Shown: positions 22,431 to 51,292 of the stretch, piece by piece
Layout of the letters: each line of letters starts with the position of its first letter
Position numbering within the stretch: the stretch's first letter is position 1
Virus record (IMG/VR): IMGVR_UViG_3300020161_000132
Location: 1-59,436 of that record
Strand: one strand, 5' to 3'
DNA length: 59,436 nucleotides
From: a virus
Taxonomy: Duplodnaviria; Caudoviricetes
Translations under genes and position numbers: made by a program
Notes under the pieces: model-generated
What the model was told of the DNA's origin: nothing
Seen by the model: only the letters and a program-made list of their open reading frames with translations
Database searches by the model: none

Positions 22431-25400
22431 ATGGGTAAGTTCCAAGCCCCCGGGCGCATGAGTGGTCGCACTTACAATTTTAACATCCGGGGTGACCTCC
22501 CAACTGAAGTTGAGCGTGGCCGTATCGCGCAGCATATCGCGGATAGCGAGACTGCATTTGCCCAGCAATACCAAGAGACTATGGGTCAGCCGCTTGCGGC
22601 TCCTGAAGATGATGGCACTGCAATCGGGCGCGGTTTTGAACTTGGCAAAGCTGGCGCTTACTCTCGCCTCGGCAGCGCCGCGGAGTATTTAGGCTCTGGA
22701 CTCGGCATTGATGCTCTGCGCGACTACGGCAAGGGTATGCGGCAATCTGGGGATACTGAAAGCTTCCTAGAAACCCTGCGGCAACCCGCCCCAACAGAAC
22801 TGAAAGATGTAAAAGGTCTTGGCAGTGCACTTACCTATCTTGGTGAAGGCGTGGGCCAAAGCGCTCCTGAGATGTTTGCACCTCTTGCTGCTACTGCAGT
22901 GGGTACAATGCTTGGAGGTCCAGTTGCGGGGGTAGGCGCGGGCGCAGCTACAGCCTTCCCGACCTTTTTCGGTGGTAACGTCCAACGGCAGGAAGCAGAA
23001 GTTGCGGCAGGCCGCAAGTCCGAAGTCGATGTTGCTTCCGCGGTAACTAGTGCAATCGGCCAGTCGGCGCTAAACGCCATTGGTGATAAACTGCTGCTTG
23101 GTGGGTTCCTGAAACCCGGCCAGAAATGGCTAACACGCACTGCGCTCGGCACTGTCGAAGGCGCTACGACCGAAATACCGACAGAAATCACGCAGCAAAT
23201 CCTTGAGCGCAAACAGGCGGGCCTGCCTCTTGATAGCGACGAAGCTATCAATGAGTACATAAACGCAGGTGTTCTTGGCGGCGTGTTGGGCGGCGGTGTT
23301 CGTGGCACTACGGCAATGTTCCAAGGCCAAGCAGCGGAAGATGATACGCCTCCGCCCCCCACAGAAGAAACGCAACTGGAGCTCCCGCTCGAGTACCGCC
23401 CCCAACTGCAACCGGGGCAAGAAGAAGGGGATTTATTTTCTATCGCCCCTCCGAAGCCCCGCGAGCCACAAACTGAAGAAGAAAAGTACGCAGAGTGGAA
23501 AGCTGAATCTGACGCAGCTAAAGCTAAAGTAGCTAAAGCTAAAGCCGATGCAGACGCCGCTCAAGCCGCCGCTGACGCTGCCAAAGGAACCCCCGATGCC
23601 CCCGCTGCGGCTAAAGCGGCTAAGCAAAAGAAGATCGTAGCAAGCCAAACAGAGAAGCAGGCAAACGCTGTCGATAAAAAGAAACCCGCCGAACCGTCAG
23701 TGGTAGTCGCACCGCCCGTAGAAGTGCAGCAAGAGTTGTTCCCAGAAACGCCTGCTGTTGAAACGCCTGCTGTTGAAACGCCTGCGCTAGAATTTTCTTA
23801 CGGAAAAGAGCGCGACAAAACCACGGCAGGAGAAGCTAGGCAAGTCATTGCTACTGGTAATAACGGCACTGTCGGGGCTGTAGAAGGTACAATTCTGAAG
23901 AATGCTGATGGAACCCCTTCATCGAAAATTCAAATCTATAACTCCAGCCTTGCAGACGAGCTTCGCGGTAATGGTCTTGGTACGCAAATGTATCAGGAGT
24001 TTATTTCCAAGGCGGCAAGCGAAGGACTCTCAGTAGTTTCGGATACGTCTGTAACTCCTCCCGCCGCCCGCGTTTATGCCGCGCTTGGAAAACTGGGCTA
24101 TGGGGTAAAGCAAGCTGAAAATACCGTGGCGGAGCCTGACGGACGCATCAAAACGCAAGATGGGTCGCCTGTATTTGAAATCGTGTCTACTCCAAATGAG
24201 GTGCAAAATGTCCAAGCTGTTAACCCTGAAGCAGTTGGAGCTAGCACTGAAGACGCTGGACTCAGCACGGAAACTGGAGGATCTGTCCCCGCTGCCGCTG
24301 GACCCGCCCAAGGGGCTGAAGAATCTGTCAATGGCGGAGTGGGCGAGCCTGCAGATGTTACTGACGGACTTGGAGAACCAACGAGCGAACAGCCCGCTGC
24401 ACTAAGCAAAAAAGTCGCGGACGTAGCTGATAAAATCCGTAATACCTACGGCATGGAGCTTACCCCTGCACAACTGCAAGAGCTGGAAGGCTACTTCGCT
24501 CCGGAACCAGAAGGCCCAAAAACTGATTGGGCTGCGTATGCTCGTAAAGCACCGGAGACAGCGGAAGAAGCGGGTAAGACTAAACTTGTCGATCTCACAC
24601 CGCGGCAAATCAATGACTTTGCGCAGAGCCTTGGGTCCACGGATCTTTCAGGGTTCCTCAACAAGCTGCTTACGACACCCACTGCCCCCACCGTAAGCAT
24701 GACAGAAACTAAGATACCGGGATACACGGAAATCCGCGAGCTGCAGCTTGTATTAGCGGAACGTCAAGCCATTGCAAACGACACCGCACAAGAAGCTTTG
24801 GAAATCGCTTGGAAGAACAGCGTACCAGAGGAGTTCATCGACGACTTTGAGACGTGGCAACCTGACGCGGAAATGCAGCGTAAACTGCCTGACATCACTA
24901 CGGCTGATGACAAAGGCAAAATCCTCGAACTTGTCCAGCGCACCACCAAGCAACTCGTAGGCGAAGCAAACAAGCCTGCAAGAAACGCACAGCTTTACTT
25001 CTCTCGGTTCCGCCGTCCGATAGACGCCATACAGTATATGGCCGAACTTATCCGTATGCAGGCACCTCAGTACAAGGCGCAGGAAATTGAAGGCGTAAAG
25101 CCAGAAGCTTCAGAGAAAGCTTTCAACCAAGGGCACGGTATGACTACTGCGCAAAATGCTTTGGATTGGGTTATGGCTAACCTTGATCCAAGCACACAGG
25201 CCCAAGTTGCGCTCTTAGTTTCCAAAGAACTAGCCCTAGCCCCTGCCGCTGCTGGGCGGGTATCGGCTTCTACACGCCGTATGGCTCAGTTCGACGAGGG
25301 CCGCGAAGCGTATCAAGGAGAAGTAGATACGCAGGTCGAAAAAGAAAGCGTAGAGGCGGCGCAAGCCAAACGCGAACTGCAAGCTGCTATCTCGGAAGCT

Positions 25401-28400
25401 AAAGCCAAGGCCAAAGCTATTGCAGATATCTCTCTGTACGAAGAGCAGATTGACCCAGAGTTGGTGATCAAACGGGCTGAAAAACGTGCTGCAGACACCG
25501 CCGCAGCAAAAGCTGCCGAAGATGCACGGATTGCCGCAGAAGAAGAAATGGAAGCTAACTTCTTCCGCAGGTTGCAGGAGATCGGCTTCAACCTGAAGCC
25601 CCGTATGTCTGACATTGCTAACCTGCTTGGGCAGCGTTTGGCTTCAGTTACGCAGAACCTACTGACTAACGGCAACCTGCGTACCGCCCTGTACAGCATC
25701 GCCGAAACCTCTTCGGAACCGCGCCTAGCCAAGCTGGCTATGAAGATGCGGGGGTTAGTCAAAGAGACTAAGGTGCGGATGGTAGACACTCTCTCCAGCC
25801 CTGACGGGCGCACCATGGCTGCGGCTTACGATCCGGCTACGGACACTATCTTGTTTAACCGCAGTGCCCCCGACTCCATGACTAACGTCACGGTGCTGCA
25901 CGAGGTGGCTCACGCCATCACTCATAAGGCGCTAAACAATCCCAGCCTACCTATCACACAGCAACTTACTAAGTTGTTTGAAGACGCTCAGAAGGCTATT
26001 GGGCCCGACACTATCGGCATGAACAACATCCATGAGTTCGTAGCGGAAGCGTTCACGAACAAGATGTTCCGCGATATGCTGCAAGCATCCTACCCGAACG
26101 GCGGTAAGTTCTCGGCTTGGCAACGGTTCAAGAATGCGGTGGGTAACTTCATCCGCCGTATCTTTGGGGCTCCTGCTAACGTGCTGGGCTCTCCGATGGA
26201 CGATCTGGATATGCACCTTGACCAACTGTTGGACACTTCGTCTGACGTTGTTGGCCCGCGCCCTGATCCTTCTCAGGGGCTCCTCTACCGTGCATCTAAT
26301 GACCCGAAAGAACTGACAGGCGTCATGGCGCGTATGTTCCGCGAGGAGCAGAAGTTTGGTGAACCCACCAAAGCTTTCCGTGACAACTGGGCTAACCGTG
26401 CCAAGGAACTGTACACAAACTCCAAGGGCCTGTTGTCTAAGGGCGTACTCGGCTTCAGTTCATTGCTGCAGTTGTCGGATGTGGCTACAGTTGCAGGGAT
26501 CAAGAACGCCCCCGACCTATATGATGCCGTGGCCAAGCTGGACGCTTCTACGATTGCCTCTGATCGCGAAGTTCAAGCAGCCTTGATACGTATGCAGGAG
26601 TGGGCCAAAAAGTTCCCAGAAAAGCGCTCGCTCTTGAACAAGATCGTAGCCTTCTCGACTATCAATCAAGTGGACCCCGAAAAGACTCGCGATGTCTACA
26701 CGCAGTACTGGCTCAAGTACGACCCGACCGGGAAGTTTGAAGATGGTATTAAGTACACAGGCTTTAAGACTGCAGCGGAGCGCGATGCTAAGCTGAAGGA
26801 GTTGCGGGACAAGTACGGCAAGGATAAAGCCAAATCCGCTGGTAATGCCAATATGGATAAGGCTGCTTTGCATGACGAGATGCAAGCAAGCTGGAAGGCT
26901 CTCGGGCCAGAAGGCCGCGCTATCTACAACCTGATGCGGATGACTTATCGTAAGCAGTTCATGGCTATGCGGGACGCTGTTGGTGGTAAAATCGACTTTG
27001 CGCTCGGAGCAAACTCTACGCTGGCAAACTCCGTCAAGAGCAACATCTACGAACGGTTCTTTGATTTCCGGTCGCTCGAACCCTACTTCCCGCTCGTCCG
27101 TAAGGGCGAGTTCTGGATGCAATACACTGTGCGTGACCCCGTAACCGGGGAAGATGAAGTGGTGAAGGAAGCCTTCGAGACTCGCGCAGAGCGGGATCGT
27201 GTGCGGTCTCTCCTGAAATCGGAAGTCCCGCAGGTCGCCCTAGACGCAAACGGCAACCCAGAAGTTCTTATGTATGAGAACAGCGGTCTAGAGCGCAGCC
27301 GTATCGGTGCGCCAGAGACTAAGTTTGTACGCGATGTGCTTAGTGCGCTTGTCGCAAACAAGGTAAGCGAAAAGGCTCAAAATGAAATCTCAGAGCTCTT
27401 CATCGACGCTTTGCCAGAAACAAGTTTTGCACGTGCTATCAAAGGCCGTAGCGGCGTGCGCGGGTTTGAATCTGACGCATTAGAAGCTTTCCGTCTTAAA
27501 GCCTTCACTCTTGGCCGTCAGGCCGCACGGTATCCGTTCATGCAGAAGGTGCAGGAAGAACGCGACAAGATCGCCGCACAGGGTACAGGGTCGGCCACTA
27601 ATGATCCTGTGCGTATGGCGTTGATCAAAGAACTTGTCATGCGTGCCGATACCGCTATGCACCCGCCGCAGGGCGCTTGGCAGGAAGTAGCCAAGGCAGC
27701 TAACCAGTTTGCCTTCACCTACACTCTCGGCCTGAACATCTCGTCTGCACTCGTCAACCTATCGGCAGTGCCGATTGTGATGGTCCCATATCTGTCTGGT
27801 AAGTATGGGTTGGCTAACACCACCCGCGCTACCCGTGCGGCTTACAAGCTGTTCTTGAACAGCGGGTTCAATACAACCCTCACTACGGCTACGAACGACG
27901 TGGTCAACGTGAAAGCTAGCCCATCTATCGACAACTACTTTGAGTTGAAGGACGTAAATGGCAAAATGGAGTACGTGCTGCGCACGGACTTGAACCTGTC
28001 TGACGCGCAGAAAAAACAAATGCAGGATATGCTGCCGCTGGTTAAGCTGGCTGCAGCGCAGGGACTCTTAAGCCGTTCCCTTACCTACGACACTCTCGGC
28101 GTAGAAAACTTCGGCCAAAATAAAACTATGTTGGATAAGCTGAGTATGCTGCAGGGGCTTCCATTCCACATGGTTGAACGGTCAAACCGTCAGGTCAGCT
28201 TGATGGCCTCTTACCAGATGGAACTTGATCGCCTGCGTAAGAACCCGACCGCAGCAGAGAAGTCTATGACTGACGCACAGAAGCAGGAACAGGCGGCGGA
28301 GAAGGCTGCGTACATGACTGCGGAGATGCACGGTACTCACACGCTATCTACTGCACCGCGCTACGCGCAGAGCGGTCTCGGGCGCATTGCGATGATGTTT

Positions 28401-29372
28401 AAAAGCTACGGCCTGAACATCGCCTATATGCAGTTTAAAATGCTGAAGCAGGGCTGCGAAAACTTGTTCCCCGGAAACGATGCAGAGGCACGGGCGCTGC
28501 GCAACACCGCCTTCAAGCAGCTTCTGGGGCTGCAACTCTCCACGGCTCTTATTGCAGGTGTGTCGGGTGTCCCGCTCTACGGCCTGTACCGCATGGTCGC
28601 CAATATGTTCCTTGGCGATGACGAAGAAGATGCCGATATGCTGACCCGTAAGGCTCTGGGGGAATGGGCATTCCGCGGCCCGCTAACAGAGGCACTGGGG
28701 ATCGACATCTCGTCGCGTACTGGTCTAAACGACCTGCTGTTCCGCGCTAACCCATATGCAAAGAACCAGTCAAATGCAGACTTCATCGCTGCGCTGATTG
28801 GAGGCCCTGCATGGTCTACAGGTAATCAGTTCTTGAGCGGCCTTAACGAGATGAAGCGGGCGGCGCTTGGTCAGGATGGAGACTTCCAACGCGGTCTGGA
28901 GAATATGCTGCCTCCGCTGCCGCGTAACGTCTTACAGTCTATTCGGTTTGAGGCTGAAGGGGCCCGTACTCGGCGTGGAGATGTGGTATTTAACGAGTTT
29001 TCGCTGGGTCAACTGCTGTGGAAAGTTACAGGCTTTAAACCCGCGGAACTCGCGCAGCGTGAAGAAATCACTCGCGGCGCTGCCCGTATGGATAAGGCTG
29101 TGGCGCAGGAGAAAACGCTGCTCTTGAACCGCCTCAATCTGGCAATGTCTCAGGGCGACCGCGGCGAGGAGCTTGAAGCTCGGAAGGACATCCAAGAGTA
29201 TAACGCAAAGGTTCGTGCAAAGTACCCCAATATGCAGATCACCCCAGAGACTATTAAGTCTTCAGGTACATCGTTCGAGCGTGTTTCGGCGCGTACCCAC
29301 AACGGCGTGACGTTCAACCCCGCTACGGAATCTTACTTTACCACTCTGCTCAGCGCCTACGGCGCAGACTAA
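22431..29372 (+). CDS. Large polyvalent ejection protein (~2313 aa) with GNAT-like and zincin metallopeptidase motifs
   Basis: ELRGNGLGTQMY acetyl-CoA-binding-like motif; VLHEVAH plus downstream HEFVAE; YFPLVRKG; last gene of the late block. Confidence 0.8.
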   Translation: MGKFQAPGRMSGRTYNFNIRGDLPTEVERGRIAQHIADSETAFAQQYQETMGQPLAAPEDDGTAIGRGFELGKAGAYSRLGSAAEYLGSGLGIDALRDYGKGMRQSGDTESFLETLRQPAPTELKDVKGLGSALTYLGEGVGQSAPEMFAPLAATAVGTMLGGPVAGVGAGAATAFPTFFGGNVQRQEAEVAAGRKSEVDVASAVTSAIGQSALNAIGDKLLLGGFLKPGQKWLTRTALGTVEGATTEIPTEITQQILERKQAGLPLDSDEAINEYINAGVLGGVLGGGVRGTTAMFQGQAAEDDTPPPPTEETQLELPLEYRPQLQPGQEEGDLFSIAPPKPREPQTEEEKYAEWKAESDAAKAKVAKAKADADAAQAAADAAKGTPDAPAAAKAAKQKKIVASQTEKQANAVDKKKPAEPSVVVAPPVEVQQELFPETPAVETPAVETPALEFSYGKERDKTTAGEARQVIATGNNGTVGAVEGTILKNADGTPSSKIQIYNSSLADELRGNGLGTQMYQEFISKAASEGLSVVSDTSVTPPAARVYAALGKLGYGVKQAENTVAEPDGRIKTQDGSPVFEIVSTPNEVQNVQAVNPEAVGASTEDAGLSTETGGSVPAAAGPAQGAEESVNGGVGEPADVTDGLGEPTSEQPAALSKKVADVADKIRNTYGMELTPAQLQELEGYFAPEPEGPKTDWAAYARKAPETAEEAGKTKLVDLTPRQINDFAQSLGSTDLSGFLNKLLTTPTAPTVSMTETKIPGYTEIRELQLVLAERQAIANDTAQEALEIAWKNSVPEEFIDDFETWQPDAEMQRKLPDITTADDKGKILELVQRTTKQLVGEANKPARNAQLYFSRFRRPIDAIQYMAELIRMQAPQYKAQEIEGVKPEASEKAFNQGHGMTTAQNALDWVMANLDPSTQAQVALLVSKELALAPAAAGRVSASTRRMAQFDEGREAYQGEVDTQVEKESVEAAQAKRELQAAISEAKAKAKAIADISLYEEQIDPELVIKRAEKRAADTAAAKAAEDARIAAEEEMEANFFRRLQEIGFNLKPRMSDIANLLGQRLASVTQNLLTNGNLRTALYSIAETSSEPRLAKLAMKMRGLVKETKVRMVDTLSSPDGRTMAAAYDPATDTILFNRSAPDSMTNVTVLHEVAHAITHKALNNPSLPITQQLTKLFEDAQKAIGPDTIGMNNIHEFVAEAFTNKMFRDMLQASYPNGGKFSAWQRFKNAVGNFIRRIFGAPANVLGSPMDDLDMHLDQLLDTSSDVVGPRPDPSQGLLYRASNDPKELTGVMARMFREEQKFGEPTKAFRDNWANRAKELYTNSKGLLSKGVLGFSSLLQLSDVATVAGIKNAPDLYDAVAKLDASTIASDREVQAALIRMQEWAKKFPEKRSLLNKIVAFSTINQVDPEKTRDVYTQYWLKYDPTGKFEDGIKYTGFKTAAERDAKLKELRDKYGKDKAKSAGNANMDKAALHDEMQASWKALGPEGRAIYNLMRMTYRKQFMAMRDAVGGKIDFALGANSTLANSVKSNIYERFFDFRSLEPYFPLVRKGEFWMQYTVRDPVTGEDEVVKEAFETRAERDRVRSLLKSEVPQVALDANGNPEVLMYENSGLERSRIGAPETKFVRDVLSALVANKVSEKAQNEISELFIDALPETSFARAIKGRSGVRGFESDALEAFRLKAFTLGRQAARYPFMQKVQEERDKIAAQGTGSATNDPVRMALIKELVMRADTAMHPPQGAWQEVAKAANQFAFTYTLGLNISSALVNLSAVPIVMVPYLSGKYGLANTTRATRAAYKLFLNSGFNTTLTTATNDVVNVKASPSIDNYFELKDVNGKMEYVLRTDLNLSDAQKKQMQDMLPLVKLAAAQGLLSRSLTYDTLGVENFGQNKTMLDKLSMLQGLPFHMVERSNRQVSLMASYQMELDRLRKNPTAAEKSMTDAQKQEQAAEKAAYMTAEMHGTHTLSTAPRYAQSGLGRIAMMFKSYGLNIAYMQFKMLKQGCENLFPGNDAEARALRNTAFKQLLGLQLSTALIAGVSGVPLYGLYRMVANMFLGDDEEDADMLTRKALGEWAFRGPLTEALGIDISSRTGLNDLLFRANPYAKNQSNADFIAALIGGPAWSTGNQFLSGLNEMKRAALGQDGDFQRGLENMLPPLPRNVLQSIRFEAEGARTRRGDVVFNEFSLGQLLWKVTGFKPAELAQREEITRGAARMDKAVAQEKTLLLNRLNLAMSQGDRGEELEARKDIQEYNAKVRAKYPNMQITPETIKSSGTSFERVSARTHNGVTFNPATESYFTTLLSAYGAD

Positions 29373-29404
29373 AGAAAAGGCCCCAGCGCTGCGAACGCTG
29401 GGGC
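29371..29404 (-). terminator. Rho-independent terminator ending the leftward transcription block
   Basis: 9-bp stem GCCCCAGCG/CGCTGGGGC followed on the - strand by CTTTTCTTT. Confidence 0.8.
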
Positions 29405-29455
29405 TAGTAGACGAGCAGTGGGTCTGGAGAACCCTGTGGCAGGGAGATCGCCACA
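29371..29455 (-). ncRNA. Candidate anti-Shine-Dalgarno small RNA (~85 nt)
   Basis: Hairpins UGUGGC-GAUCUCCCU-GCCACA and GGGU-UCUCCAG-ACCC, then the terminator; possible promoter TTCGCA-17-TATAGA at 29489-29461. Confidence 0.6.
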
Positions 29456-29466
29456 TCGGCTCTATA

Positions 29467-29724
29467 TCATGTGGTTCTCCATATGCGAAGCCCCAATTTG
29501 TAGTCTTCGATACAAACCCTAGTGGTCACTATCCAACCAAACATATCGGCTATTTCTATGACCTGCTTTTTGCAGGTGTCCACATTCATGCAGGGCACAA
29601 AGATAGACGCGCCGATATCCATATCCTCCCAGCTTACTGTGATAACTAAGCCGTCAGGTTCTAGATCACGTAATCTCCGCACCATCCACATGGTCCTTGA
29701 TTGCAAAATCCACGACGATAGCAT
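29467..29724 (-). CDS. Small hypothetical protein (start uncertain)
   Basis: Overlaps the primase 3' end; W..M..G.SIFVPC...LGLRIWR pattern. Confidence 0.65.
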   Translation of the reverse strand: MLSSWILQSRTMWMVRRLRDLEPDGLVITVSWEDMDIGASIFVPCMNVDTCKKQVIEIADMFGWIVTTRVCIEDYKLGLRIWRTT

Positions 29725-32476
29725 CAGCGGGCGGTAGGCTCATGTGAGTGCCTTTGCCCAGACGAACCTTAACCTTCTGTGCCCCCATCTTGTTTTTGAG
29801 TTCTTCGGTAAAGGAACTGTAGTTGATCTGCTGCTCAGTGCACCATTCCCGCAACGGTTTCGGCACAAGGAACAACTTCTGCAGGTCTGTCTCGTACCGT
29901 GCCACAAAGTTAAAGCGTGGGCGGGCTTCCGGCACAATGATACTATCCAGCCCATTGCCGTGCTTGCTGCGCAGGTCTTCTGTGCTCTTGATCTGCAGCA
30001 CTTGGTCGATGTGCTCCAGCACGTAGGAGTTCAAAATATCCGGCGCAGAGGCGGACATATCAGTCATCGCGCTGTTGTTTGACTTCAACAGATCATTCAC
30101 GAGGAACTTAAACATACCCTTGGGGTCATAGTTCAGAAGGCCGATCTTGTTGCAGATTAGCAGGGCTGTGAGGATGGCGGCAGCGCCCGCGGACCAGAAA
30201 CGATTAGCAGCGACGAGGTTTGCGGCACCGTCAATCTTCTCCTGCATCTTCTCGTAGAGACCACGCACTTCTTCACGATGCTCAATGACATACTGAGCAA
30301 ACACTGGACCCGCATGGCCGTAGGTATTCATAATCTTTTTAGCTAGCGCATCAGTCACGGGCTTGCTGATGTCTTTGTGCGGTTTCACACTGTGTTCAAG
30401 AATACGCATGGCCTCGGCGTTTGGGTCAGCCTTGATTGCACGTATCTTCTCAATGAGCGAGGCGTTCGCGGAGGTAACGCAAATAAGCTTCCAAGGCGCT
30501 CCGCGATGCCGTTCTGTGTTAGACCCAGAACTCATACGGGCCCGCTGCCGCCCACCGGACACTTGGTAAAGCAAATCCGAAAGTTCTTTCGGCGAAGCGT
30601 TGGTAAGTTCGTCGATAAGCAACGGCAGGTGCTGCCAGATCTCACCACGGCTCATCCTAGCATTCTGCGTATCGTTTTCCTGCAGGGTATACGCATCGGG
30701 GTTCCCCCAGACGGACGCCGCCGAAAACATTGCGGTACTCTTGCCAAGCCCTGATACGCCCATGAGGTGAATTGTCAGACAGTGCACCGCAGAGAACGGC
30801 ATAAGGATAGAGCCAAACCCTGACAAGAGCACCGCCTGATGGATCTCCATTCCGGGGCGGTTGTAGAATTCCATAAGCGTTACCCAATCAGCCAGCGTCC
30901 CGCGCTGCGTAAACACGTGGAAGTGTTCTGCGGTTGAGGATGATGGCGGATTGTAGTCCAGCCCTGTAGCGGTGATAGAAGTATCCCCGACAATAAACGC
31001 AGTCATGTCTTCGTCAGTCCAACCGAACTGCCGCCGTGCTTTGATAGCTTCGATGTTTGCTTGCAATTCATGTATCCACTGTGTTGTGTAAATCATAAGC
31101 GCTTCTAGGTCTTTACCCCACACAGTGATGCCCTGCTGAGATAGGTACTTCCTGAAGTCTTCCCGTGAGGTCACGGCAGTCAGGGGCACAGTAAACTCGC
31201 GGGGCACATCACGGGGAAGATGCAGCTTCATAGCCACAACCTCGCCAAGGTCGGGGTCATTCAGGCGGTGCGTAACGTACAGATCATTATGGTAGATGCA
31301 CCGTTCGACAATCTCGCCTTCATCATCGGTAGCGCGGATGTACACGCCGCCCTTGGCCCCACGGAAGTAAGGAGCAGGGTACTTAGGGACAACGTGTATC
31401 TTCTCACCAGCCTTAGTCCGCACGACTAACTGATTGTCTTTCTCTTCCGCTTCAACCACGTGCTGGCCTAGCGTGATGGGGGATTTGATCTTACCGAAAT
31501 GCGGGCAACCTTCGCAGCCGCCCGGATTGTATTCGTCGAAGCGAGTGCAAAGGTACGGCCCCTTGATGCGGTCCATCTTCTCTTCGGTTTCGACAGGGTC
31601 ATACTCAGGATGCCCAGAGGATATCTTATGCGCCGCCTTACCCCCATCGCTGCAGAACTTGGCAATCGACAACCCTGCCCGCCACATGGGCTCAGGAAGT
31701 TCAGCGCGGTTCTGGAAGATATAGGCAAGCTGAGCGCAGCCTTTACCCGCTGCGGTCTTAGCCATAATTGTCTTGAACACACTCTCGCGGTTGGCAAGTA
31801 GGGCGCTCATAACGGCATCGGTCTCACGGGGGGCATAGGCGCGGGGCGTAAACACGGGGGTATCAACGCCCGCCAAAATCCCCTCTATCTCACTTACTGA
31901 TACACTGTTTGCACTATCGGTCAGAAAATCCACGGGGAGTGCGGGGTCAGCCTTGTGGTTATGGGTGCTAGGGACACGCAATATGCGGGCACCATCGGCG
32001 GTCACAACAGGGTCGGCTTTGAGGTTTTGGGTAACGCAAGCCTGTTTAAGCTTAAGCGCCAGCTTATACCACTCGGTGTATACTAGCGGCGTAGTTAACA
32101 TCCAGTAAACGTGTACGCCACGCCCTGAGTTTATCATCACGGGCTTGGGCATCTTGGTAGCTTTGCAGAAGTCCCGCAAAGCCGAAATCGCTGCGGCCTG
32201 TGACGGATAGTCTTTCCCCGGACCACAGTCGAGGTCGAGGTACAGCGAATGCAGGGTGTCGATATTATCTACCTTGCGGGAGACAGCTTCCTTGAACGTA
32301 GCCAAGGCAAAATAGGCATCGTAACCCTCGGCGTCGAAGTTCGCCGCTGCGTCGATAATATCGCGCTTAGAAGTGTAGAACTTCTGTGTCTTCTTGCCAT
32401 CGCTAAGACGTGATGCAAAGACGCAGTAAAATCCTGTGTTCCCCAGAGCGCGTTCTAGAAATTCTAGTGTTTCCAT
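29666..32476 (-). CDS. Primase-helicase (AEP/RepB-like primase, DUF927-like region, P-loop ATPase)
   Basis: Start reassigned to METLEF; LYLDLDC, SGRGVHVYW, RILRVP; Cys cluster GPYLC...CEGCPH; Walker A GVSGLGKS; LLIDELT. Confidence 0.88.
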   Translation of the reverse strand: METLEFLERALGNTGFYCVFASRLSDGKKTQKFYTSKRDIIDAAANFDAEGYDAYFALATFKEAVSRKVDNIDTLHSLYLDLDCGPGKDYPSQAAAISALRDFCKATKMPKPVMINSGRGVHVYWMLTTPLVYTEWYKLALKLKQACVTQNLKADPVVTADGARILRVPSTHNHKADPALPVDFLTDSANSVSVSEIEGILAGVDTPVFTPRAYAPRETDAVMSALLANRESVFKTIMAKTAAGKGCAQLAYIFQNRAELPEPMWRAGLSIAKFCSDGGKAAHKISSGHPEYDPVETEEKMDRIKGPYLCTRFDEYNPGGCEGCPHFGKIKSPITLGQHVVEAEEKDNQLVVRTKAGEKIHVVPKYPAPYFRGAKGGVYIRATDDEGEIVERCIYHNDLYVTHRLNDPDLGEVVAMKLHLPRDVPREFTVPLTAVTSREDFRKYLSQQGITVWGKDLEALMIYTTQWIHELQANIEAIKARRQFGWTDEDMTAFIVGDTSITATGLDYNPPSSSTAEHFHVFTQRGTLADWVTLMEFYNRPGMEIHQAVLLSGFGSILMPFSAVHCLTIHLMGVSGLGKSTAMFSAASVWGNPDAYTLQENDTQNARMSRGEIWQHLPLLIDELTNASPKELSDLLYQVSGGRQRARMSSGSNTERHRGAPWKLICVTSANASLIEKIRAIKADPNAEAMRILEHSVKPHKDISKPVTDALAKKIMNTYGHAGPVFAQYVIEHREEVRGLYEKMQEKIDGAANLVAANRFWSAGAAAILTALLICNKIGLLNYDPKGMFKFLVNDLLKSNNSAMTDMSASAPDILNSYVLEHIDQVLQIKSTEDLRSKHGNGLDSIIVPEARPRFNFVARYETDLQKLFLVPKPLREWCTEQQINYSSFTEELKNKMGAQKVKVRLGKGTHMSLPPADAIVVDFAIKDHVDGAEIT

Positions 32477-34082: not shown

Positions 34083-34130
34083 GCGGTGTTCTCCAGTGGT
34101 GATTTGTTAGTTATAGTGACTAACTTTGTG

Positions 34131-35666: not shown

Positions 35667-35690
35667 CGGATTCTCCAGATAGTTTTGTTT

Positions 35691-38834: not shown

Positions 38835-38860
38835 GTTAGTTCTCCAGATTAGTATTGTCG

Positions 38861-39064: not shown

Positions 39065-39086
39065 GTTAGTCCTCCAGACTAAGTTA

Positions 39087-39467
39087 TTATTTAGCGCGGT
39101 TGTCGTTCAGCTTCCCGTGCTTTTCGGCATCCAAGAGGATGTTGCAGCAAGCCATAACATGAGCAAGGTGCGGTAGCCCGCTCTCTGGGTCTAAGGTCTC
39201 CCCATTAAACCATGCCATCAGGTGGCGGAGCGCCGCATCGTAATACACAGTAGAGGACACCTGATGTTCGCGCCAGTTAAACCGCCCGTACTTGCTTGCC
39301 CCGTTGCTATGCACCTGACCAAGAAGTTGAATACCAATTGTCGGTGTGTCACTCAGTTTTGGCTTTGCCTCACCAAAGGCGGTCTTCGGGTTGTCGTCGG
39401 GGTACTCACTCATCTTTGGCGCGTCCGCCGATCCACCCATAACCATCATCTCACTCCACTTTGCCAT
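39087..39467 (-). CDS. dATP/dGTP diphosphohydrolase-domain protein (DUF5664-like)
   Basis: NPK...G..KP, GASKYGRFNWR, YYDAALRHL, GETLDPESGLPHLAH. Confidence 0.85.
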   Translation of the reverse strand: MAKWSEMMVMGGSADAPKMSEYPDDNPKTAFGEAKPKLSDTPTIGIQLLGQVHSNGASKYGRFNWREHQVSSTVYYDAALRHLMAWFNGETLDPESGLPHLAHVMACCNILLDAEKHGKLNDNRAK

Positions 39468-39621
39468 TGGATACCCCAGATATCTTAGATTGTTGGTGAG
39501 GGGCGATTGGGGAAATAGGCCGTAGCGCAGTCAGATTTCGACCAAAACAAAAACACCCGTTGCCGTTTGTTAGATTGTTTCACGCCCCTCACAGGTTTTG
39601 TAGCAGTAGCAGGTTTTAGCA

Positions 39622-39852
39622 TCAAGGGGCTTTCGCTGTCTTTTTCTTGCAAGCGGTGTAAGCAAACTGCCCATCGCCCAGCTTGCGTTGGTAAAGAAAA
39701 CATAGGCCCGCCTCGTATGCGTTTAGTGCATCGGCTTTGTGCGGACCCTTGGCATACGCACCTACACAATAAGTTATTGTGTCACCTACTGCGGCCTCGG
39801 CCAAGGTAATACCAAAGATGCCGCTACCCCCCTTTGTTATGTCATGGTTCAT
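39622..39852 (-). CDS. Hypothetical protein
   Basis: ATGA overlap within a tightly packed run; 76 aa. Confidence 0.65.
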   Translation of the reverse strand: MNHDITKGGSGIFGITLAEAAVGDTITYCVGAYAKGPHKADALNAYEAGLCFLYQRKLGDGQFAYTACKKKTAKAP

Positions 39853-40067
39853 TTACGATCCAGACGCTCCAGACGCTTTTCGTGATCCAGCAGGATCTGA
39901 TGCAGTTTCAGCCAGTTTTGGTGGTCGTTGCCATGTTCCATGCCAAGCGCGTCCTTTATGCGCTTCTGCTCTTGCCACATCGCCTCTTGCTCAGGCGTCC
40001 GCTGGTCGGTGATGTAGACCCGCAGGGGTTCTTCCTTGCCGAAAAATTTTTCCATTAGCCACTTCAT
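39849..40067 (-). CDS. Hypothetical protein
   Basis: CTGGAG RBS; ATGA overlaps. Confidence 0.65.
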   Translation of the reverse strand: MKWLMEKFFGKEEPLRVYITDQRTPEQEAMWQEQKRIKDALGMEHGNDHQNWLKLHQILLDHEKRLERLDRK

Positions 40068-40291
40068 TCTGTTTTCTCCAGTTCGTTAAGTACAACAGCA
40101 ATTGCCTCGGCATTGGCACGAGATAGGAAGGGTAGGCTGTGGGGCGGTACTGCCCCCTCTTTACATACCAGTGTGAGTGCTTCCTTTGTCTTGTTGCGGT
40201 CGGCGGGCTTATCATCGGTCAAATACCAAAAGCCCCAATCATCAGTTTTGTCAGACGCGGAACGCGCCCGCCACTTCCTAACGTCAGTCAT
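40064..40291 (-). CDS. Hypothetical protein
   Basis: GGAGG RBS; ATGA overlaps. Confidence 0.6.
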   Translation of the reverse strand: MTDVRKWRARSASDKTDDWGFWYLTDDKPADRNKTKEALTLVCKEGAVPPHSLPFLSRANAEAIAVVLNELEKTE

Positions 40292-40521
40292 CCCCCACCC
40301 TCCAGTTTTTCTTGAAGCCTACGCACTTTTTCTTGAAGCCTAAGCACATCGTTCCGAAGATGTTGCGTTTGGCCTTTGTAAATCTGTGCGATCTCTTGGA
40401 ACCTGTCTTCTGGCGCGATCCAATTATCCTTGATCAGATCATCCACAAGACTTGTGACACCGCATGGTGTCCAAGATTTCAATGGCGACCTGTTTGCAGG
40501 TCCAGACTTGTTGACAGTCAT
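40288..40521 (-). CDS. Hypothetical protein with C-terminal coiled coil
   Basis: Start reassigned to MTVNK (ATGA overlap with 40518..40706). Confidence 0.6.
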   Translation of the reverse strand: MTVNKSGPANRSPLKSWTPCGVTSLVDDLIKDNWIAPEDRFQEIAQIYKGQTQHLRNDVLRLQEKVRRLQEKLEGGG

Positions 40522-40706
40522 TTCTTCACCCACTTCACCCCAAAGCACAGCGACTGCATCCACCGATGGAACCAGTTTGGTTCGAGGCCATTTGCTGGCC
40601 TGAATATGACGCTTCCCCCTATGTTTGGCCCACCAAACAGATAGCAGGACCACTCTGAGTTTTTGGGGTAAGGTGTAATCCTAAGTACCTCTCTTGGGTC
40701 AGTCAT
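40518..40706 (-). CDS. Hypothetical protein
   Basis: ATGA overlaps; PNWFHRWMQ.LCFGVKW. Confidence 0.6.
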   Translation of the reverse strand: MTDPREVLRITPYPKNSEWSCYLFGGPNIGGSVIFRPANGLEPNWFHRWMQSLCFGVKWVKK

Positions 40707-41101
40707 TCGTCACACCCCTTCTTGCGGTAAAAAATGTGGTCGCCGTACATCCCCACGACTTGCATATCCTTGTCCTTAGCCCACCACGGGTGAGCATCGC
40801 GGGTGGCGTAGTGTGTCGCGCCTGTGCAGAAATCGCAGCCATAAAGAAGCGTCTCGTTGGCAATGATCTGGGCTTCCAGCCATGCCACGGTGTCCTTGGG
40901 GCGGTCGCTTTTGCCGTCTTCGGTCCAGCTAAACTGGCCCTTTTCCCAGACCACCTCACATACTTCTTTCGGATATCCTTCAGTGTTGACGCGCTCCATA
41001 GTGACTTCGGCTATCATCTTCTGCCCATCATAGTCTTCACCCCGTGCTTCAAAGTAGACGTTAAGGGCGAGGCACGTTGCTGCTGCCGTTGTTATGATCA
41101 T
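40703..41101 (-). CDS. SleB/Hydrolase_2-family cell wall hydrolase
   Basis: CLALNVYFEARGE, V.MER, QFSW, GATHY, DHIFY. Confidence 0.9.
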   Translation of the reverse strand: MIITTAAATCLALNVYFEARGEDYDGQKMIAEVTMERVNTEGYPKEVCEVVWEKGQFSWTEDGKSDRPKDTVAWLEAQIIANETLLYGCDFCTGATHYATRDAHPWWAKDKDMQVVGMYGDHIFYRKKGCDE

Positions 41102-41400
41102 TTCGTTTTCTCCTTATGTGCTGCCGCTGCGTCAGCTACCCGCTTGCGGGTGAAGTCTGTGCCGTGGCTAAGAACTTTACCAAGGTAGGTGCGGTTAAAC
41201 CCAAGCGTAACGCTTGCTGCCGATATGGACGGAAAGGTCAATCCATGCAGGGTTATAGGTTTCTTAGGGTTCTTGCCCGTACCGACAGCATCCATGTTAC
41301 CGCGATTGAGGGCGGAATAGATGGCGTCCATCGTCACGTTGTGTGCTTTTGCCGCTGCCCGTACTGAGGGGTACGTGACCCCCCGTATTTTAATCAGCAT
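41098..41400 (-). CDS. Tandem small DNA-binding-motif protein (NUMOD1-like)
   Basis: Two repeats of I.I.G.T(Y/F)PS..AA. Confidence 0.65.
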   Translation of the reverse strand: MLIKIRGVTYPSVRAAAKAHNVTMDAIYSALNRGNMDAVGTGKNPKKPITLHGLTFPSISAASVTLGFNRTYLGKVLSHGTDFTRKRVADAAAAHKEKTK

Positions 41401-42110
41401 TAAAGTTTCTCCGCTTTCGGCCCAATAGCGGCAATGATCCTGTTGAGGCGATCTTGGAGTTTCTTGACCTCATCGCGGTGCGCTTTCATGTGCGTCATCT
41501 CCACGCCTATGGTCACTAGATGATCGTCTACCTTCTTCATCCATGCTGCAACGTCAGCCGCAAGGCTACCCAACTCCTCATTGCCGTCAGGTCCAAACAT
41601 ATCTTCGCGCACGGCTGCAACCCAGCCCGCCATGATGCCATCTTCCAGCATATCGGCAATGCCTTTGTCGGTCTCAGTGCCTTTGTAACGCTGGTTCTTG
41701 GTGTCGTAGGACTCTTCCAAAGCCGCGACGATCAGGCGTTTCTGGTCCCGTGTGGGTTGCCGCAACGGCGGTGCGGGCGGCGGGGGGACGATGATTACAG
41801 TAGGTTCTTTAGCCATTGGTTTCTCCAGAGGGTTGGGGGTGTAAAAGTGGTGGTGCGGTTCAAGCGGCGCAAACGGGGAAGTACTTTCTAGGTTACAGGC
41901 GGGGCAGCGCAGAACTCCCTTGACGTAGGTCCACCCCGCTGCGTGTAGTTTCGGCATAACTTGAGACTTGTTGACCTCGGGACCACGCGCAGAGTTAGCC
42001 CGCGTGGCGAAGTTGCTTTTGACATTCGTTGAATGTCCGCACTTGGCGCAAGTGCATTTGGCGGTGGAGTTACCACGCGCATCTCTCATAGGTTCAAATG
42101 GCGCGTTCAT
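41400..42110 (-). CDS. Hypothetical protein (zinc-finger N-terminus, coiled-coil C-terminus)
   Basis: CAKC and CPAC; Pro linker; helical C-terminus. Confidence 0.7.
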   Translation of the reverse strand: MNAPFEPMRDARGNSTAKCTCAKCGHSTNVKSNFATRANSARGPEVNKSQVMPKLHAAGWTYVKGVLRCPACNLESTSPFAPLEPHHHFYTPNPLEKPMAKEPTVIIVPPPPAPPLRQPTRDQKRLIVAALEESYDTKNQRYKGTETDKGIADMLEDGIMAGWVAAVREDMFGPDGNEELGSLAADVAAWMKKVDDHLVTIGVEMTHMKAHRDEVKKLQDRLNRIIAAIGPKAEKL

Positions 42111-42274
42111 ATCGACACCAGTTTCTTGCTGCGCTGCAGCCGCTGCACCTTCTTACGCAACTCAATCATGTCGCGGGGGTGCTTAAGGAACGGTTCCAAC
42201 CCACGGCCCTTGGCCCTGCCGATACGATACAGGGCCAACACGTGCTTAGGTTTCATGTCATTCAGCGGGATCAT
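42107..42274 (-). CDS. Small basic protein (55 aa)
   Basis: Hand translation MIPLNDMKPKHVLAL...KKLVSI*; fills the gap, with an ATGA overlap into the next gene. Confidence 0.55.
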   Translation of the reverse strand: MIPLNDMKPKHVLALYRIGRAKGRGLEPFLKHPRDMIELRKKVQRLQRSKKLVSI

Positions 42275-42566
42275 TAGTTGCCCCCACTATGTAATCGGTC
42301 ATCAGTGCCACGTTCTCCTCGTTGACAACGATGGCAAAGCCCCCCGCTAGGCGGATGGCCTCTAGATTTATGTTCTGCAGAGTAGTTGGTTTGTTAGACC
42401 CAGCCTTGCACTCAAAGCCAAAGAACCTGCCTTTGTAGCAGCAGATCACATCGGGCACACCGCTTGTGCCGTAGCCGCCTGTCACGGGGTAGAAGTAGTA
42501 CGCGCTCAAGGCTTTAAGCTGCGCTACAAGTTTTTTCTTTACCTTAACCTCTGGCGTATCAGCCAT
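42258..42566 (-). CDS. VRR-NUC nuclease / Holliday junction resolvase-like
   Basis: TPE.KVK, SGVPD, FECKA, PTTLQ, AGG.AIVVNE. Confidence 0.9.
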   Translation of the reverse strand: MADTPEVKVKKKLVAQLKALSAYYFYPVTGGYGTSGVPDVICCYKGRFFGFECKAGSNKPTTLQNINLEAIRLAGGFAIVVNEENVALMTDYIVGATNDPAE

Positions 42567-43047
42567 AATTGTTCTCTCCTTTAGGTATCTCCAGCCAAAA
42601 CACGTACTTACTGATGCGGCGTCCTAAACCTTCTATGTGTTCAGTTGGCGCAGTATCATCTAACATAAGCATCACGTGCAGCTTCTCTTGCATCCACTTA
42701 GGCAGTCGTGAGAAGTCAGCATACACGCGGTCTGGTTCCATATCAACACGTTCCATGCCAATACTTACCACTTCGATATCATCCCTGTCGGGATGTAACG
42801 CCACACGATAAACTGTTGCGTGTTTTGGCAAAGCTTGGCCCCCATCTCTGTGATCGTGAACAAGCAGAGAGAGTTTAATTTCCGCTATGTACTGTTCGTG
42901 GTCATCCTTGGATACTCTCGCTGGCGCTGGGTATAGGTCTATGAGTTCGGCCAGCCGGAAGGAGTAAAGCCTTGGTCCTTGAGGGAACAGCGCATCCTCA
43001 ATCCGTTCGCCTGTGATCCCATTTTGATTTACGGTGCTTGCCATCAC
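42559..43047 (-). CDS. Hypothetical protein
   Basis: 162 aa; C-terminus EKLHVMLM...EGLGRR resembles the C-terminus of 43044..43958. Confidence 0.7.
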   Translation of the reverse strand: MMASTVNQNGITGERIEDALFPQGPRLYSFRLAELIDLYPAPARVSKDDHEQYIAEIKLSLLVHDHRDGGQALPKHATVYRVALHPDRDDIEVVSIGMERVDMEPDRVYADFSRLPKWMQEKLHVMLMLDDTAPTEHIEGLGRRISKYVFWLEIPKGENNYG

Positions 43048-43958
43048 ACCACCACAACGTAGCGATTGGTATCCAGCTTAACGCCCACGCCGTGGACGAA
43101 CTCAGGGGTCTGCATCATGTACAGCACGGACACGCGCTCTTTGATTGCCTCCATGTCCAACCCTGTCAGTGCGTCTATGTAACCCAAGGTCGGGTCTGTT
43201 GGTACTTTGAACCACGGCAACGAGCGGTTGACAGTGTTGTCCCACACAACTGGAACAGTGTCGTAAGTCGGTACGCCTAACCGCATATGAGGATGCACGT
43301 AGTACACCTTGCCTGAGAACTGCGACAGGCGAGAGAAGGCATCCTTAGCATCGAAGTAGTCGTTCACTTGCTGGTTGAAGCCGCTATCTCCAATAGTAAC
43401 TCCCTGCATACGCAGAATGGCGAAGGCGTTCTCCAAACCTGTCGGCAAGAACCTACCAAGTGTGGCAGTGTTCACGATGGCAGAGCAGGAAGTGGCTAGT
43501 TTCTTACTCACTTCTGCGTTGCTGACCATGAACGCCTCGTTCAGTTCGTGGATAGATGCCTTAGCCCCATCTACTTTCGGTATTGCACGTAGGTATTTCT
43601 TCACCAGCTTGACGGCTTTATCCACGTTATCAGTCATCGACATATTCCGCTGGTCGGAACCTTTGGCATACTTAGCATTGTCGATGTTGTGGCTGCTTAC
43701 AACGTAGCGGTTGCGGACTGACGCAGCGCGGGTGTAATCCCCAAAGCCAACCCAGCCCCATGCGAAGGCGTCACCCTCTCGGTACACGGCGACCTCATTG
43801 CGGTAGGTATCGACGCTGCGAAACTTCAGGTTGGGCATCTCTGCCAGTAGGGTAGAGCATAGCAAGTTTATCGCTTCCTTGTGTTGCCCACCCAGCCTCT
43901 TACTAAACTGATCTTCAGTCTGCTCTGCTTCCAGCTTTGCTACGGGTATGTGCTTCAT
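43044..43958 (-). CDS. Hypothetical early protein
   Basis: 304 aa; TCTGGAGAAC RBS with a palindrome just upstream. Confidence 0.8.
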   Translation of the reverse strand: MKHIPVAKLEAEQTEDQFSKRLGGQHKEAINLLCSTLLAEMPNLKFRSVDTYRNEVAVYREGDAFAWGWVGFGDYTRAASVRNRYVVSSHNIDNAKYAKGSDQRNMSMTDNVDKAVKLVKKYLRAIPKVDGAKASIHELNEAFMVSNAEVSKKLATSCSAIVNTATLGRFLPTGLENAFAILRMQGVTIGDSGFNQQVNDYFDAKDAFSRLSQFSGKVYYVHPHMRLGVPTYDTVPVVWDNTVNRSLPWFKVPTDPTLGYIDALTGLDMEAIKERVSVLYMMQTPEFVHGVGVKLDTNRYVVVV

Positions 43959-44000
43959 TTTAGTTCTCCAGATGTTAGTCTTTGCGACTAAGGGTTGTTG

Positions 44001-45011
44001 TTACTTCTCTTCCACAAGACCAAGGACTTGGTTCATGTGATAGTTGAACGCATTGAGGAACTTAGTCTTTGCTTCCTTCTCGGTGTGGCTCCCATTCTTG
44101 ACGTTCTGCTCTATGCGCCGCAGATCACAGGCATTGAGGATGAAGGTAGCCAAGACTACACGCAGCGGGTGCTGCTCGTTCTGCATGATTTGGCGGGTGA
44201 TCTTAGGTGGTATATGTTGGATGCCTATCCTGCCGTAGCCATTTGCTAGGCCCCACTGCTCTACTGCCCCTTCGTCGTTGCGGCGTTGCGTGACATAGGC
44301 GGTGTTCAAGGCTTCCTCTTGCTTAGTGTAGGGCCATGACCACGCAGGCTTTATGTTCAGCATGGGGGCCATGACCAGCGCCCACTCCCTGAATGCCTTG
44401 ATGTCGTTGCGCAGTTCGGCCTTGGCTTCCTTATCCACAACCTTCCTCGGCGCAGCGTATGGCTCACTAACCAGCGTGAACTGATCATTGCCTTTATGCT
44501 GGAATACAAGTTCAGGAGTTGTTGGTCCGTTTTTGTCGAAACTCTTAAAGGCTGTACTGTACGTGCCCCCCATCCACTTGTCTTTTGGCAGGTAGTGTTT
44601 AGTCAGATCATTGCGCCGAATGATGTATTGCTTGCCGTTTTGCGTGGCAAAGTTCAGACCATAAGGCAGTGCCTCCCACAGGAACCGAAAGTGCGTGATG
44701 TTCGAAGCGGTGAACCAACCATTACGCACGTGTACGAAGTCGCCCTTGTCGGTACGCTCCCACAGGATAGCCGCACGGATACGTGCTTCTTCCTTGTTAA
44801 AGGTTTCTATCTTCATCCACCAATGAGAGGACGGCCAAAACGCATAGTTGTTATCGTCGATCTTGACGATGCGCTCGGCATGGTTTGTTCTCCGACCCAA
44901 GGGGCGGATATCGTAGGGCGCATTCTTACCCTTGATAGGTGTGATTGAGTTGTAGATGGAAACCACGTGATCGAACGACGTAGGGGTTGTGATTGGATAT
45001 CCACTAGACAT
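44001..45011 (-). CDS. Hypothetical early protein
   Basis: 336 aa; AAGGAG RBS. Confidence 0.8.
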   Translation of the reverse strand: MSSGYPITTPTSFDHVVSIYNSITPIKGKNAPYDIRPLGRRTNHAERIVKIDDNNYAFWPSSHWWMKIETFNKEEARIRAAILWERTDKGDFVHVRNGWFTASNITHFRFLWEALPYGLNFATQNGKQYIIRRNDLTKHYLPKDKWMGGTYSTAFKSFDKNGPTTPELVFQHKGNDQFTLVSEPYAAPRKVVDKEAKAELRNDIKAFREWALVMAPMLNIKPAWSWPYTKQEEALNTAYVTQRRNDEGAVEQWGLANGYGRIGIQHIPPKITRQIMQNEQHPLRVVLATFILNACDLRRIEQNVKNGSHTEKEAKTKFLNAFNYHMNQVLGLVEEK

Positions 45012-45023
45012 TTTGTTTTCTCC

Positions 45024-46217: not shown

Positions 46218-46262
46218 ATTAGTTCTCCAGAGGTTAGTCGGGGCGACTAAGCGCCCCTGTTG

Positions 46263-48344: not shown

Positions 48345-48462
48345 TTTAGTTCTCCAGATGTTAGTCGTTGCGACTAAGGGGTTTGCTTCACGATGCTTAA
48401 CCATCGCTTACTACAATACTACACCATTTGATAGCGTAGTTCCACTATTTTGAGCAAAATAG

Positions 48463-48744: not shown

Positions 48745-48745
48745 A

Positions 48746-48949: not shown

Positions 48950-48950
48950 C

Positions 48951-51289: not shown

Positions 51290-51292
51290 CGT

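Follow-up and report, generated by a model that had tools for sequence, protein, structure and literature searches.

The stretch of DNA considered here, a virus record of 59,436 bases (Caudoviricetes; IMG/VR record IMGVR_UViG_3300020161_000132) rated 99%, i.e. nearly complete, and referred to below as the window, contains two convergent gene blocks separated by 94 bases; these bases are occupied by the element under study, a candidate regulatory RNA in which a short segment, the seed, is complementary to the ribosome sites of early genes. The + strand carries the late genes, including those of the terminase large subunit (53410), the portal (55480), tail-fibre-like and virion proteins and a DNA-ejection protein, and this block closes with a polyvalent protein of 2,313 amino acids (22431-29372) bearing LPD39 and GNAT domains, whose stop lies at 29372. 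The - strand, from about 51,700 down to 29,467, is the replication module and encodes a DNA polymerase A, an SNF2 helicase, a PD-(D/E)XK nuclease and a DUF927 primase-helicase; directly 3' of the last gene of this operon, which specifies a protein of 72 amino acids, and 5' of the terminator lies the element. The substitutions of the 72-amino-acid protein among relatives fit a coding pattern and thus indicate a real gene; the protein matched no Pfam or PHROG family, and its Atlas clusters are composed throughout of viral hypothetical proteins.

The features of the element and its candidate targets are collected in Table 1; the two hexamers, hairpins 1 and 2 and the terminator were all located on the - strand at the positions given in the earlier note on this DNA. 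The tail of the terminator overlaps the stop of the convergent giant gene, and the loop of hairpin 1, which as RNA reads GAUCUCCCU (29441-29449, -), is the second CU-rich loop of the element. The 106-nucleotide region folds with an energy of -41.2 kcal/mol and a z-score of -3.58, a fold matched by none of 200 shuffled sequences. In the minimum-energy fold of the window RNA the seed is partly paired, in a GGGUU/GACCC stem that leaves only CUCCA in the loop.

Table 1. Features of the element and its candidate target sites in the window
Feature	Position	Strand	Remarks
Predicted RNA of about 83 nucleotides (5' hairpin, seed hairpin, linker, terminator)	29372..29454	-	from sequence and folding; 5' end predicted
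TTCGCA, -35-like hexamer inside coding sequence	29489-29484	-	17-nucleotide spacer to TATAGA 29466-29461
TGATATAGA, stop TGA of the 72-amino-acid gene fused to a -10-like hexamer	29461..29469	-	resembles an extended -10 (TGnTAnnnT)
Hairpin 1: GTGGC (29454-29450), loop GATCTCCCT, GCCAC (29440-29436)	29436..29454	-	5' stem-loop
Hairpin 2: GGGT (29434-29431), loop TCTCCAG, ACCC (29423-29420)	29420..29434	-	carries the seed
Seed GUUCUCCAGA	29432-29423	-	exact complement of ribosome site UCUGGAGAAC
Intrinsic terminator and U-rich tail CTTTTCTTTA	29370..29404, stem 29404-29380	-	11 pairs, 8 of them G-C
72-amino-acid gene, function not assigned	29467..29685	-	always directly 5' of the element; conserved among relatives
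Exact target UCUGGAGAAC, gene start 48344 (307 amino acids)	48349..48358	-	hairpin 48361-48377 directly 5'
Exact target, gene start 46217 (397 amino acids, PHROG family labelled HNH endonuclease)	46222..46231	-	
Exact target, gene start 43958 (304 amino acids)	43963..43972	-	
Exact target, DNA polymerase A gene start 38834	38839..38848	-	
One-mismatch target ACUGGAGAAC, 129-amino-acid gene start 34082	34088..34097	-	
Similar near-match target, SNF2 helicase start 35666	35670-35679	-	
Similar near-match targets, starts 49815 and 41816	49820-49829 and 41820-41829	-	
Cassettes with ribosome site UGGAG as loop of UUAGUC/GACUAA	47357..47373, 39066-39082, 48746-48762	-	

The window contains TCTGGAGAAC at exactly five places: on the - strand it precedes the ATG codons at 38834, 43958, 46217 and 48344 by 4 nucleotides, and the fifth copy, on the + strand at 29423-29432, is the complement within the candidate RNA. 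This count bears out the exact complementarity that the earlier note had claimed between GUUCUCCAGA and the ribosome sites of these four genes. With one mismatch allowed, 19 sites are found against 2.8 expected, a number reached by 0/100 shuffles; the seed is near-complementary to the ribosome sites of about eight genes beyond the four exact ones, and the sites previously listed as pairing with one mismatch or with G-U were recovered at 34088, 35670, 49820, 39069, 47360 and 48749.

These sites are restricted to the early class. The ribosome site GGAGAAC is used in the window by 6/35 early and 0/43 late genes, and the shorter GGAGAA by 13/35 and 2/43 respectively, in agreement with the former remark that the late + strand genes mostly use other Shine-Dalgarno variants; in 33 seed-bearing relatives GGAGAAC is found at 38 of 213 early and at none of 63 late distinct sites. 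The AAC of GGAGAAC is not complementary to the universal tail of the 16S ribosomal RNA, so that this extension needs another explanation. The same separation is observed in the predicted pairing energies of the 19-nucleotide seed segment with gene start regions, the medians being -14.2 kcal/mol for early and -9.75 kcal/mol for late genes (p 2e-5); energies of -16 kcal/mol or below are reached with 13/29 early genes and 0/36 late ones, and shuffled seed segments perform as well in 0/300 cases on the early genes and in 170/300 on the late genes.

The closest relatives are five viral contigs with primases 82-100% identical, which together with the window form a set of six sequences. In all six GGGTTCTCCAGACC is invariant, and the neighbouring bases vary, with indels; the loop of hairpin 1 and the linker are likewise variable and affected by indels, pairing is preserved in the stem of hairpin 1 and compensatory changes are seen in the terminator. 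A complete relative of 62 kilobases (G001) has the same layout: its early strand has TCTGGAGAAC without mismatch at four ribosome sites, and a single inverted copy is found at the element.

More distant relatives were sought with the 72-amino-acid protein alone, a search that is therefore unbiased towards the RNA. Of 149 relatives on metagenome contigs and 135 on viral ones, the 80 best in each set were examined; the sets overlap, and the family counts refer to the viral set with 10-kilobase flanks, comprising 81 loci including the window and 57 distinct sequences. The layout of the family is the 72-amino-acid gene followed by TGATAnnnT, then, at a distance of seven bases, a G, and after these the 5' hairpin, GUUCUCC and the terminator. 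TTCTCC is found within 115 nucleotides past the stop codon in 48/81 loci, and GTTCTCC is the top 7-mer downstream of the 72-amino-acid gene (34/57 distinct sequences), equalling the best-conserved coding 7-mer of the neighbouring gene. A 5' stem-loop is predicted by single-sequence folding in all 27 distinct family sequences, with stem arms that differ between clades (GUGGC/GCCAC, GACAAC/GUUGUU, ACGACA/UGUUGU, ACAUG/CAUGU, GACAG/CUGUC and GACGAG/CUUGUC) and with a median z-score of -2.46, 15/27 being below -2. The terminator is present in 25/27 distinct folds, the read segment ending early in the other two (L172, L173), and 7 of its 10 predicted pairs show compensatory changes among 21 sequences. 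On these 21 sequences MAFFT and RNAalifold recovered the terminator alone; since the arms of hairpin 1 are out of register between clades, no covariance model was built and this hairpin was judged by single-sequence folds.

Other clades have at this place GUUCUCU (L112 group), CCUCCU motifs or only a terminator. A clade of nine loci (L130, L131, L133, L139, L153, L163, L167, L169 and L171) has the GACAG/CUGUC hairpin, whose loop is CCUCCUUCUC, and then AUCCUCCUGCUC, the terminator and a further + strand gene, and GGAGAAC occurs in 0/96 of its early ribosome sites. A relocated element was not found elsewhere in 12 seedless loci, and blastn against a phage collection gave no match. Three primases, used in tblastn, retrieved distant cultured phages only, none of which carries the element; in the nearest, Rollin and RHph_TM3_14A (23-30% primase identity), the equivalent place is occupied respectively by overlapping convergent genes and by a terminator only. 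The sole match in species genomes is a contig of 7.6 kilobases (L175) with an L147-type element in a metagenome-assembled genome of Parvibaculum, an alphaproteobacterium, a match too weak to name a host.

The seed flanks co-vary with the flanks of the ribosome sites of the same phage, as anticipated by the earlier note, which had named the co-variation between loop and ribosome site as a check. The score used was the longest exact match anchored on GGAG, calculated for the phage's own seed and for the seeds of other clades: own and foreign seeds fit over 8.27 and 7.27 nucleotides in 17 representatives (0/10,000 permutations) and over 8.67 and 7.45 nucleotides in 14 clade units (0/100,000 permutations). 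In particular, GUUGUUCUCC pairs with GGAGAACAACA, the site at the helicase of L115 and L119 being ...GGAGAACAACAug; GUCGUUCUCC pairs with GGAGAACGACA; UGUCGUUCUCC(A) pairs with (U)GGAGAACGACAug in L125, L138 and L149; AUGUUCUCC pairs with GGAGAACAU in L124 and L157; GGUUCUCCAU pairs with AUGGAGAACC in L147; and UGGGUUCUCC pairs with GGAGAACCCA in L095. In several distant clades the best matches are repeatedly those at the orthologous SNF2 helicase and at the gene of 129-137 amino acids that follows it. Presence and absence follow the same direction: GGAGAAC sites are found in 70/382 genes of the GTTCTCC loci and in 6/44 genes of the GUUCUCU/A loci, the GUUCUCU form keeping G-U pairing, and in 0/17, 0/96 and 2/112 genes of three other locus groups, a contrast that is consistent with a regulatory pairing and is confounded by ancestry, so that the genes do not count as some 600 independent ones.

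The origin of the RNA has to be considered together with the end of the 72-amino-acid gene, since the proposed promoter overlaps its last codons and its TGA stop (29469-29467). TGATA is found at the end of this gene in 43/57 distinct sequences, in comparison with 2/480 other genes of the same loci; the extended -10 pattern TGATAnnnT is found in 38/57, and a G is present at the predicted +1, i.e. at position 16 after the stop codon and seven bases past TGATAnnnT, in 36/47. With this G the 5' hairpin begins or, in the L147 group, the seed itself. The hexamer TTCGCA is invariant in the six close relatives and a poor match in distant clades, and synonymous third positions vary in 1/7 of the last codons of the 72-amino-acid gene as against 18/28 of the earlier codons (p 0.03). 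The promoter suggested by the earlier note thus stands as to its positions and its -10, kept family-wide as TGATAnnnT with a G start, but not as to the consensus scan or the -35 of distant clades. An independent transcription start at about 29454 is plausible on these grounds.

The anatomy of the element, its conservation, its complementarity to ribosome sites, the restriction of these to early genes and the co-variation of the flanks converge on a reading to which a probability of about 55% is assigned, namely that a phage RNA, transcribed independently as a small RNA or forming the 3' end of the operon transcript, occludes the ribosome sites of early genes; its transcription as a small RNA, the pairing in the cell and the resulting repression are what we infer from the sequence. 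The conserved RNA, ending at the intrinsic terminator, would arise from its own extended -10 promoter, which would use the stop codon of the 72-amino-acid gene and start near 29454, or alternatively would persist as the stable 3' portion of the transcript of the replication operon. The core GUUCUCC, with the clade-specific flanks, would pair with the extended site GGAGAAC and its flanks at early and replication genes, the putative targets including the DNA polymerase, the SNF2 helicase and the 129-amino-acid protein; the pairing would mask the ribosome site, at times as far as the start codon, and would lower translation, while the late structural genes with canonical sites would escape. The likely outcome would be a negative feedback on the replication module or its timed shut-down.

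Several results weigh against this reading. In predicted folds, UUCUCC is seldom free over its whole length (probability 0.009 in the window RNA, family median 0.12), and the hairpin z-score of the window's own element is only -0.98. The duplex energies of the whole 50-nucleotide body do not separate early from late genes (-19.4 and -18.2, p 0.16), and the ribosome-site counts rely on gene starts set by a simple rule and not by a gene finder. In the window's clade the -10 ends in A rather than T, for which reason the consensus scan calls no promoter, although TTCGCA at 17 nucleotides and the low synonymous variation in the last codons may compensate for the missing T. Two freshwater metatranscriptome runs matched 0.10 and 0.08 of the sampled words and gave one contig of about 160 nucleotides each (29822-29981 and 29459-29614), neither of which lies over the RNA, and such contigs cannot show transcript ends, so that these runs are no evidence in either direction. 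As regards the co-variation, the permutations treat the clades as independent, and the values are optimistic because the clades are related and several share a GUC flank; among 14 seeds, that of L128 itself comes 8th on its sites and that of L126 11th. Within 10 kilobases each, four seed-bearing loci (L154, L156, L172 and L173) have GGAGAAC in 0/34 genes and L122 has it in 0/7. Finally, the seed label changes only four times on a tree of 51 primases, and the four independent pairs (p 0.5-1) have no power.

The alternative that survives best, though it appears unlikely, is that the element is no more than the 3' untranslated region of the replication operon with its terminator, with a role in cis, either in stabilising the 3' end or in pairing with the end of the 72-amino-acid gene, and with no effect in trans. 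The place of the element, between the last gene of the operon and its terminator, is what such a reading requires, and a partner in cis exists: the W-R-T codons of the 72-amino-acid gene form UGGAGAACC (29481-29473, -), a perfect 9-nucleotide complement of GGUUCUCCA (29433-29425) in the window. The presence of the seed goes with that of TGGAGAAC at the end of the 72-amino-acid gene, found in 18/34 seed-bearing and 1/24 seedless distinct sequences, and with the codon AGA for its arginine (22/34 as against 4/24), the other conserved arginine being encoded by CGN in 54/58. However, the partner in cis is not compensated in L095 and L096, which read UGGCGCACC and UGGCGUACC and yet keep the seed, and TGGAGAAC is absent from 16 of the 34 seed-bearing sequences; a role in cis only leaves unexplained both the match of the seed flanks to ribosome sites kilobases upstream and the TGATAnnnT with a G at +1. 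The cis and trans roles are, moreover, compatible with each other. The predicted start is 3' of UGGAGAACC; the seed could therefore be masked by it in the full-length messenger RNA (mRNA) and be free in a short RNA. A bolder version of the occlusion of early ribosome sites can be put forward, tentatively and as rather doubtful: widespread uncultured aquatic phages would mark their early and replication genes with a private, extended ribosome-site code (GGAGAAC with clade-specific flanks) read by an RNA of the same operon, whose accumulation would occlude these sites and so silence the whole early class, late genes with canonical sites remaining active, as an RNA counterpart of T4 RegA/RegB, UGGAGAAC masking the seed in the full-length mRNA only.

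A second alternative, improbable in our view, regards the element as a general anti-Shine-Dalgarno RNA directed against host mRNAs, or as a mimic of the 16S tail, the match to early genes being a by-product of its CU-rich loop. The element does contain two CU-rich motifs, and one clade has CCUCCU motifs in place of GUUCUCC. The loop of hairpin 1, which resembles the 16S tail, favours canonical late-type sites above chance (1/300 shuffles as good), with energies of -12 kcal/mol or below at 19/36 late and 5/29 early genes; the pairing of hairpin 1 with the portal ribosome site claimed in the earlier note is therefore one of many and could not be upheld as a specific contact, its motif being unenriched (5 sites against 3.6 expected, equalled by 25/100 shuffles) and the loop being variable in close relatives and not conserved across the family. 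At the gathering thresholds of Rfam 15 the only match of the window is a transfer RNA (tRNA), and the resemblances at 29340-29500 are weak and all below threshold, namely NsiR1 (18.0 bits against 39, E 0.15), mmgR/suhB (15.0 against 41) and anti-hemB (13.6 against 49.5), all of them small RNAs (sRNAs) with a stem-loop followed by a terminator. Against this alternative, the invariant part is GUUCUCC and not CCUCC, and its GUU is the counterpart of the early-specific AAC, a match not accounted for by the 16S tail; the seed segment has no excess of pairing with late sites, as seen in the shuffles above, and its flanks co-vary with the phage's own sites.

The ribosome sites complementary to the seed belong to larger repeated cassettes, in one class of which a hairpin is followed by C(A/C)-UCUGGAGAAC-UAAn-AUG. 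The window has 17 perfect TTAGTC-N5-GACTAA hairpins in comparison with 0.01 expected, nearly all in the early region (39066-52498, plus 25755-25771 and 31413-31429), and most of them are directly 5' of early genes or within the gene-poor 49,900-51,600; promoters, processing sites and 5' stabilisers are candidate roles. The cassettes in which the ribosome site is itself the loop serve the starts at 39064, 47354 and 48744 and can be aligned with the RNA in 11 complementary positions, of which one is G-U; on sequence grounds a kissing contact between their UGGAG loop and the CUCCA loop of hairpin 2 could form and lengthen to these 11 pairs. In the 62-kilobase relative (L174, G001:C1:30000-49900) there are 0 TTAGTC hairpins and 9 CTAGTG-N5-CACTAG hairpins at the equivalent places, the (A/U)CUGGAGAAC sites, (A/T)CTGGAGAAC in DNA, and the seed being unchanged; hence the hairpins turn over as a set, and the site and the seed are held. 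This repetition, together with the fact that a complement in RNA of the same strand is an inverted repeat in DNA, would suit a repeat acting at the DNA level, i.e. a protein-binding or recombination site inverted relative to the cassettes. Such a repeat is nevertheless very improbable: the motif, in which GGAG is included, keeps a fixed distance of 3-5 nucleotides to start codons, its inverted copy is in every case flanked by a hairpin and a terminator on the transcribed strand, and G-U-tolerant variants (GGAGGAC in the window, GUUCUCU in the L112 group) preserve the pairing of RNA and not the identity of DNA.

It is hardly credible that the + strand TCTGGAGAAC is the ordinary ribosome site of a gene of 28 codons (GTG 29436) antisense to the end of the 72-amino-acid gene, since a start codon 2-3 nucleotides past the motif in the window's clade, a small frame that stays open through 3-nucleotide indels in L003, L005 and L006 and the strong nucleotide conservation of the overlapped codons, which would fit dual coding, are set against the use of this site by none of the 43 late + strand genes and the lack of a start codon or conserved frame past the motif in the reverse complement of distant clades. 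The small + strand gene at 29436 was rejected as a candidate, the closest relative of the window (L002, primase 100% identical) having an in-frame TAG as the fifth codon.

Some regulators of known phages and bacteria can be compared with the RNA proposed here. In phages P1 and P7 the c4 antisense RNA precedes its target in the operon and matures by processing, two of its loops pairing with two target boxes; the element is downstream of all its candidate targets and has a single conserved seed across the family. As reviewed (PMC12197685), c4 is a phage RNA that shares the operon of its targets and blocks translation through loops that pair around the ribosome site, and to this extent the two are alike, the pairing of the element being a predicted one. 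The differences concern the setting, since c4 serves immunity in temperate phages through one antirepressor operon, whereas the element closes the replication operon of a phage in which no integrase was noted and matches a standardised ribosome site shared by about a dozen genes; furthermore, there is no likeness of sequence or structure.

In T4, the repressor RegA is an early regulator directed to ribosome sites. The target of the T4 endoribonuclease RegB with S1 (PMC1702504) is GGA with a degenerate A-rich stretch, 11 nucleotides in total, in early transcripts, so that there too an early-specific extension of the ribosome site permits shut-off as a group. However, RegB and RegA are proteins, and the recogniser here would be an RNA; no match labelled RegB or RegA was obtained among the window proteins scanned, which covered some early genes only.

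The bacterial anti-Shine-Dalgarno sRNAs include the alphaproteobacterial AbcR1/2 and cuckoo family, named for comparison by the earlier note. With these, and with mmgR, anti-hemB and the toxic sRNA of Betaproteobacteria, the element shares CU-rich loops or linkers, an intrinsic terminator and many ribosome-site targets, candidate ones in its case, but its core is GUUCUCC instead of CCUCC, and it is encoded by a phage and matched to the phage's own genes. The sRNAs derived from 3' untranslated regions, such as CisR, which acts on CTX-phi, occupy, as the element does, the 3' end of a coding transcript, share the terminator with the mRNA and possibly have a promoter inside the upstream gene; CisR is encoded by the host and acts on phage mRNA, whereas here both the RNA and the candidate targets are encoded by the phage. 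The virulent Pseudomonas phage PAK_P3 has two abundant intergenic RNAs of about 100 nucleotides, sRNA1 and sRNA2, proposed as silencers of translation, and the element proposed for them is an 11-mer similar to the T-psi-C loop and not a seed against ribosome sites (PMC4933390). A literature search, with supplements outside its scope, found no description of the element or of the GGAGAAC early ribosome site.

Other observations concern the two gene blocks. The protein of 2,313 amino acids (22431-29372, +) has matches to GNAT acetyltransferase, to LPD39 and, weakly, to metallopeptidase-like families; its PHROG matches are all of unknown function, and family scans gave no match to an RNA polymerase family. 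A tRNA-Met gene lies at 55334-55408 (+), just 5' of the portal gene. At the head of the early region, from about 51505 to 51290 (-), a unit CCAGTTC(T/C)CGCTCCCGCATCTAGC... is repeated three times, each copy close to a TTAGTC hairpin, and these units are 3' of a small gene and terminator (51563-51538). A second GGTTCTCCCAG is found at 50133-50160 (-), directly 5' of a doubtful open reading frame of 76 codons in the gene-poor part of the same region.

Temporal control in lytic phages is mostly credited to transcription factors, to changes of RNA polymerase and to a few RNA-binding proteins. The features described here suggest an RNA brake on early protein synthesis, undescribed for such phages. 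If this is true, an RNA specific for one class of ribosome sites would add a translational, RNA-based layer to phage timing and would account for the near-identical ribosome-site cassettes on early genes. Freshwater and marine metagenomes commonly contain the family, of which 149 relatives were found on metagenome contigs and 135 on viral contigs, and the mechanism would thus concern abundant environmental viruses, in which the co-varying seeds and sites would represent matched pairs of RNA and ribosome site, potentially usable as orthogonal translational switches.

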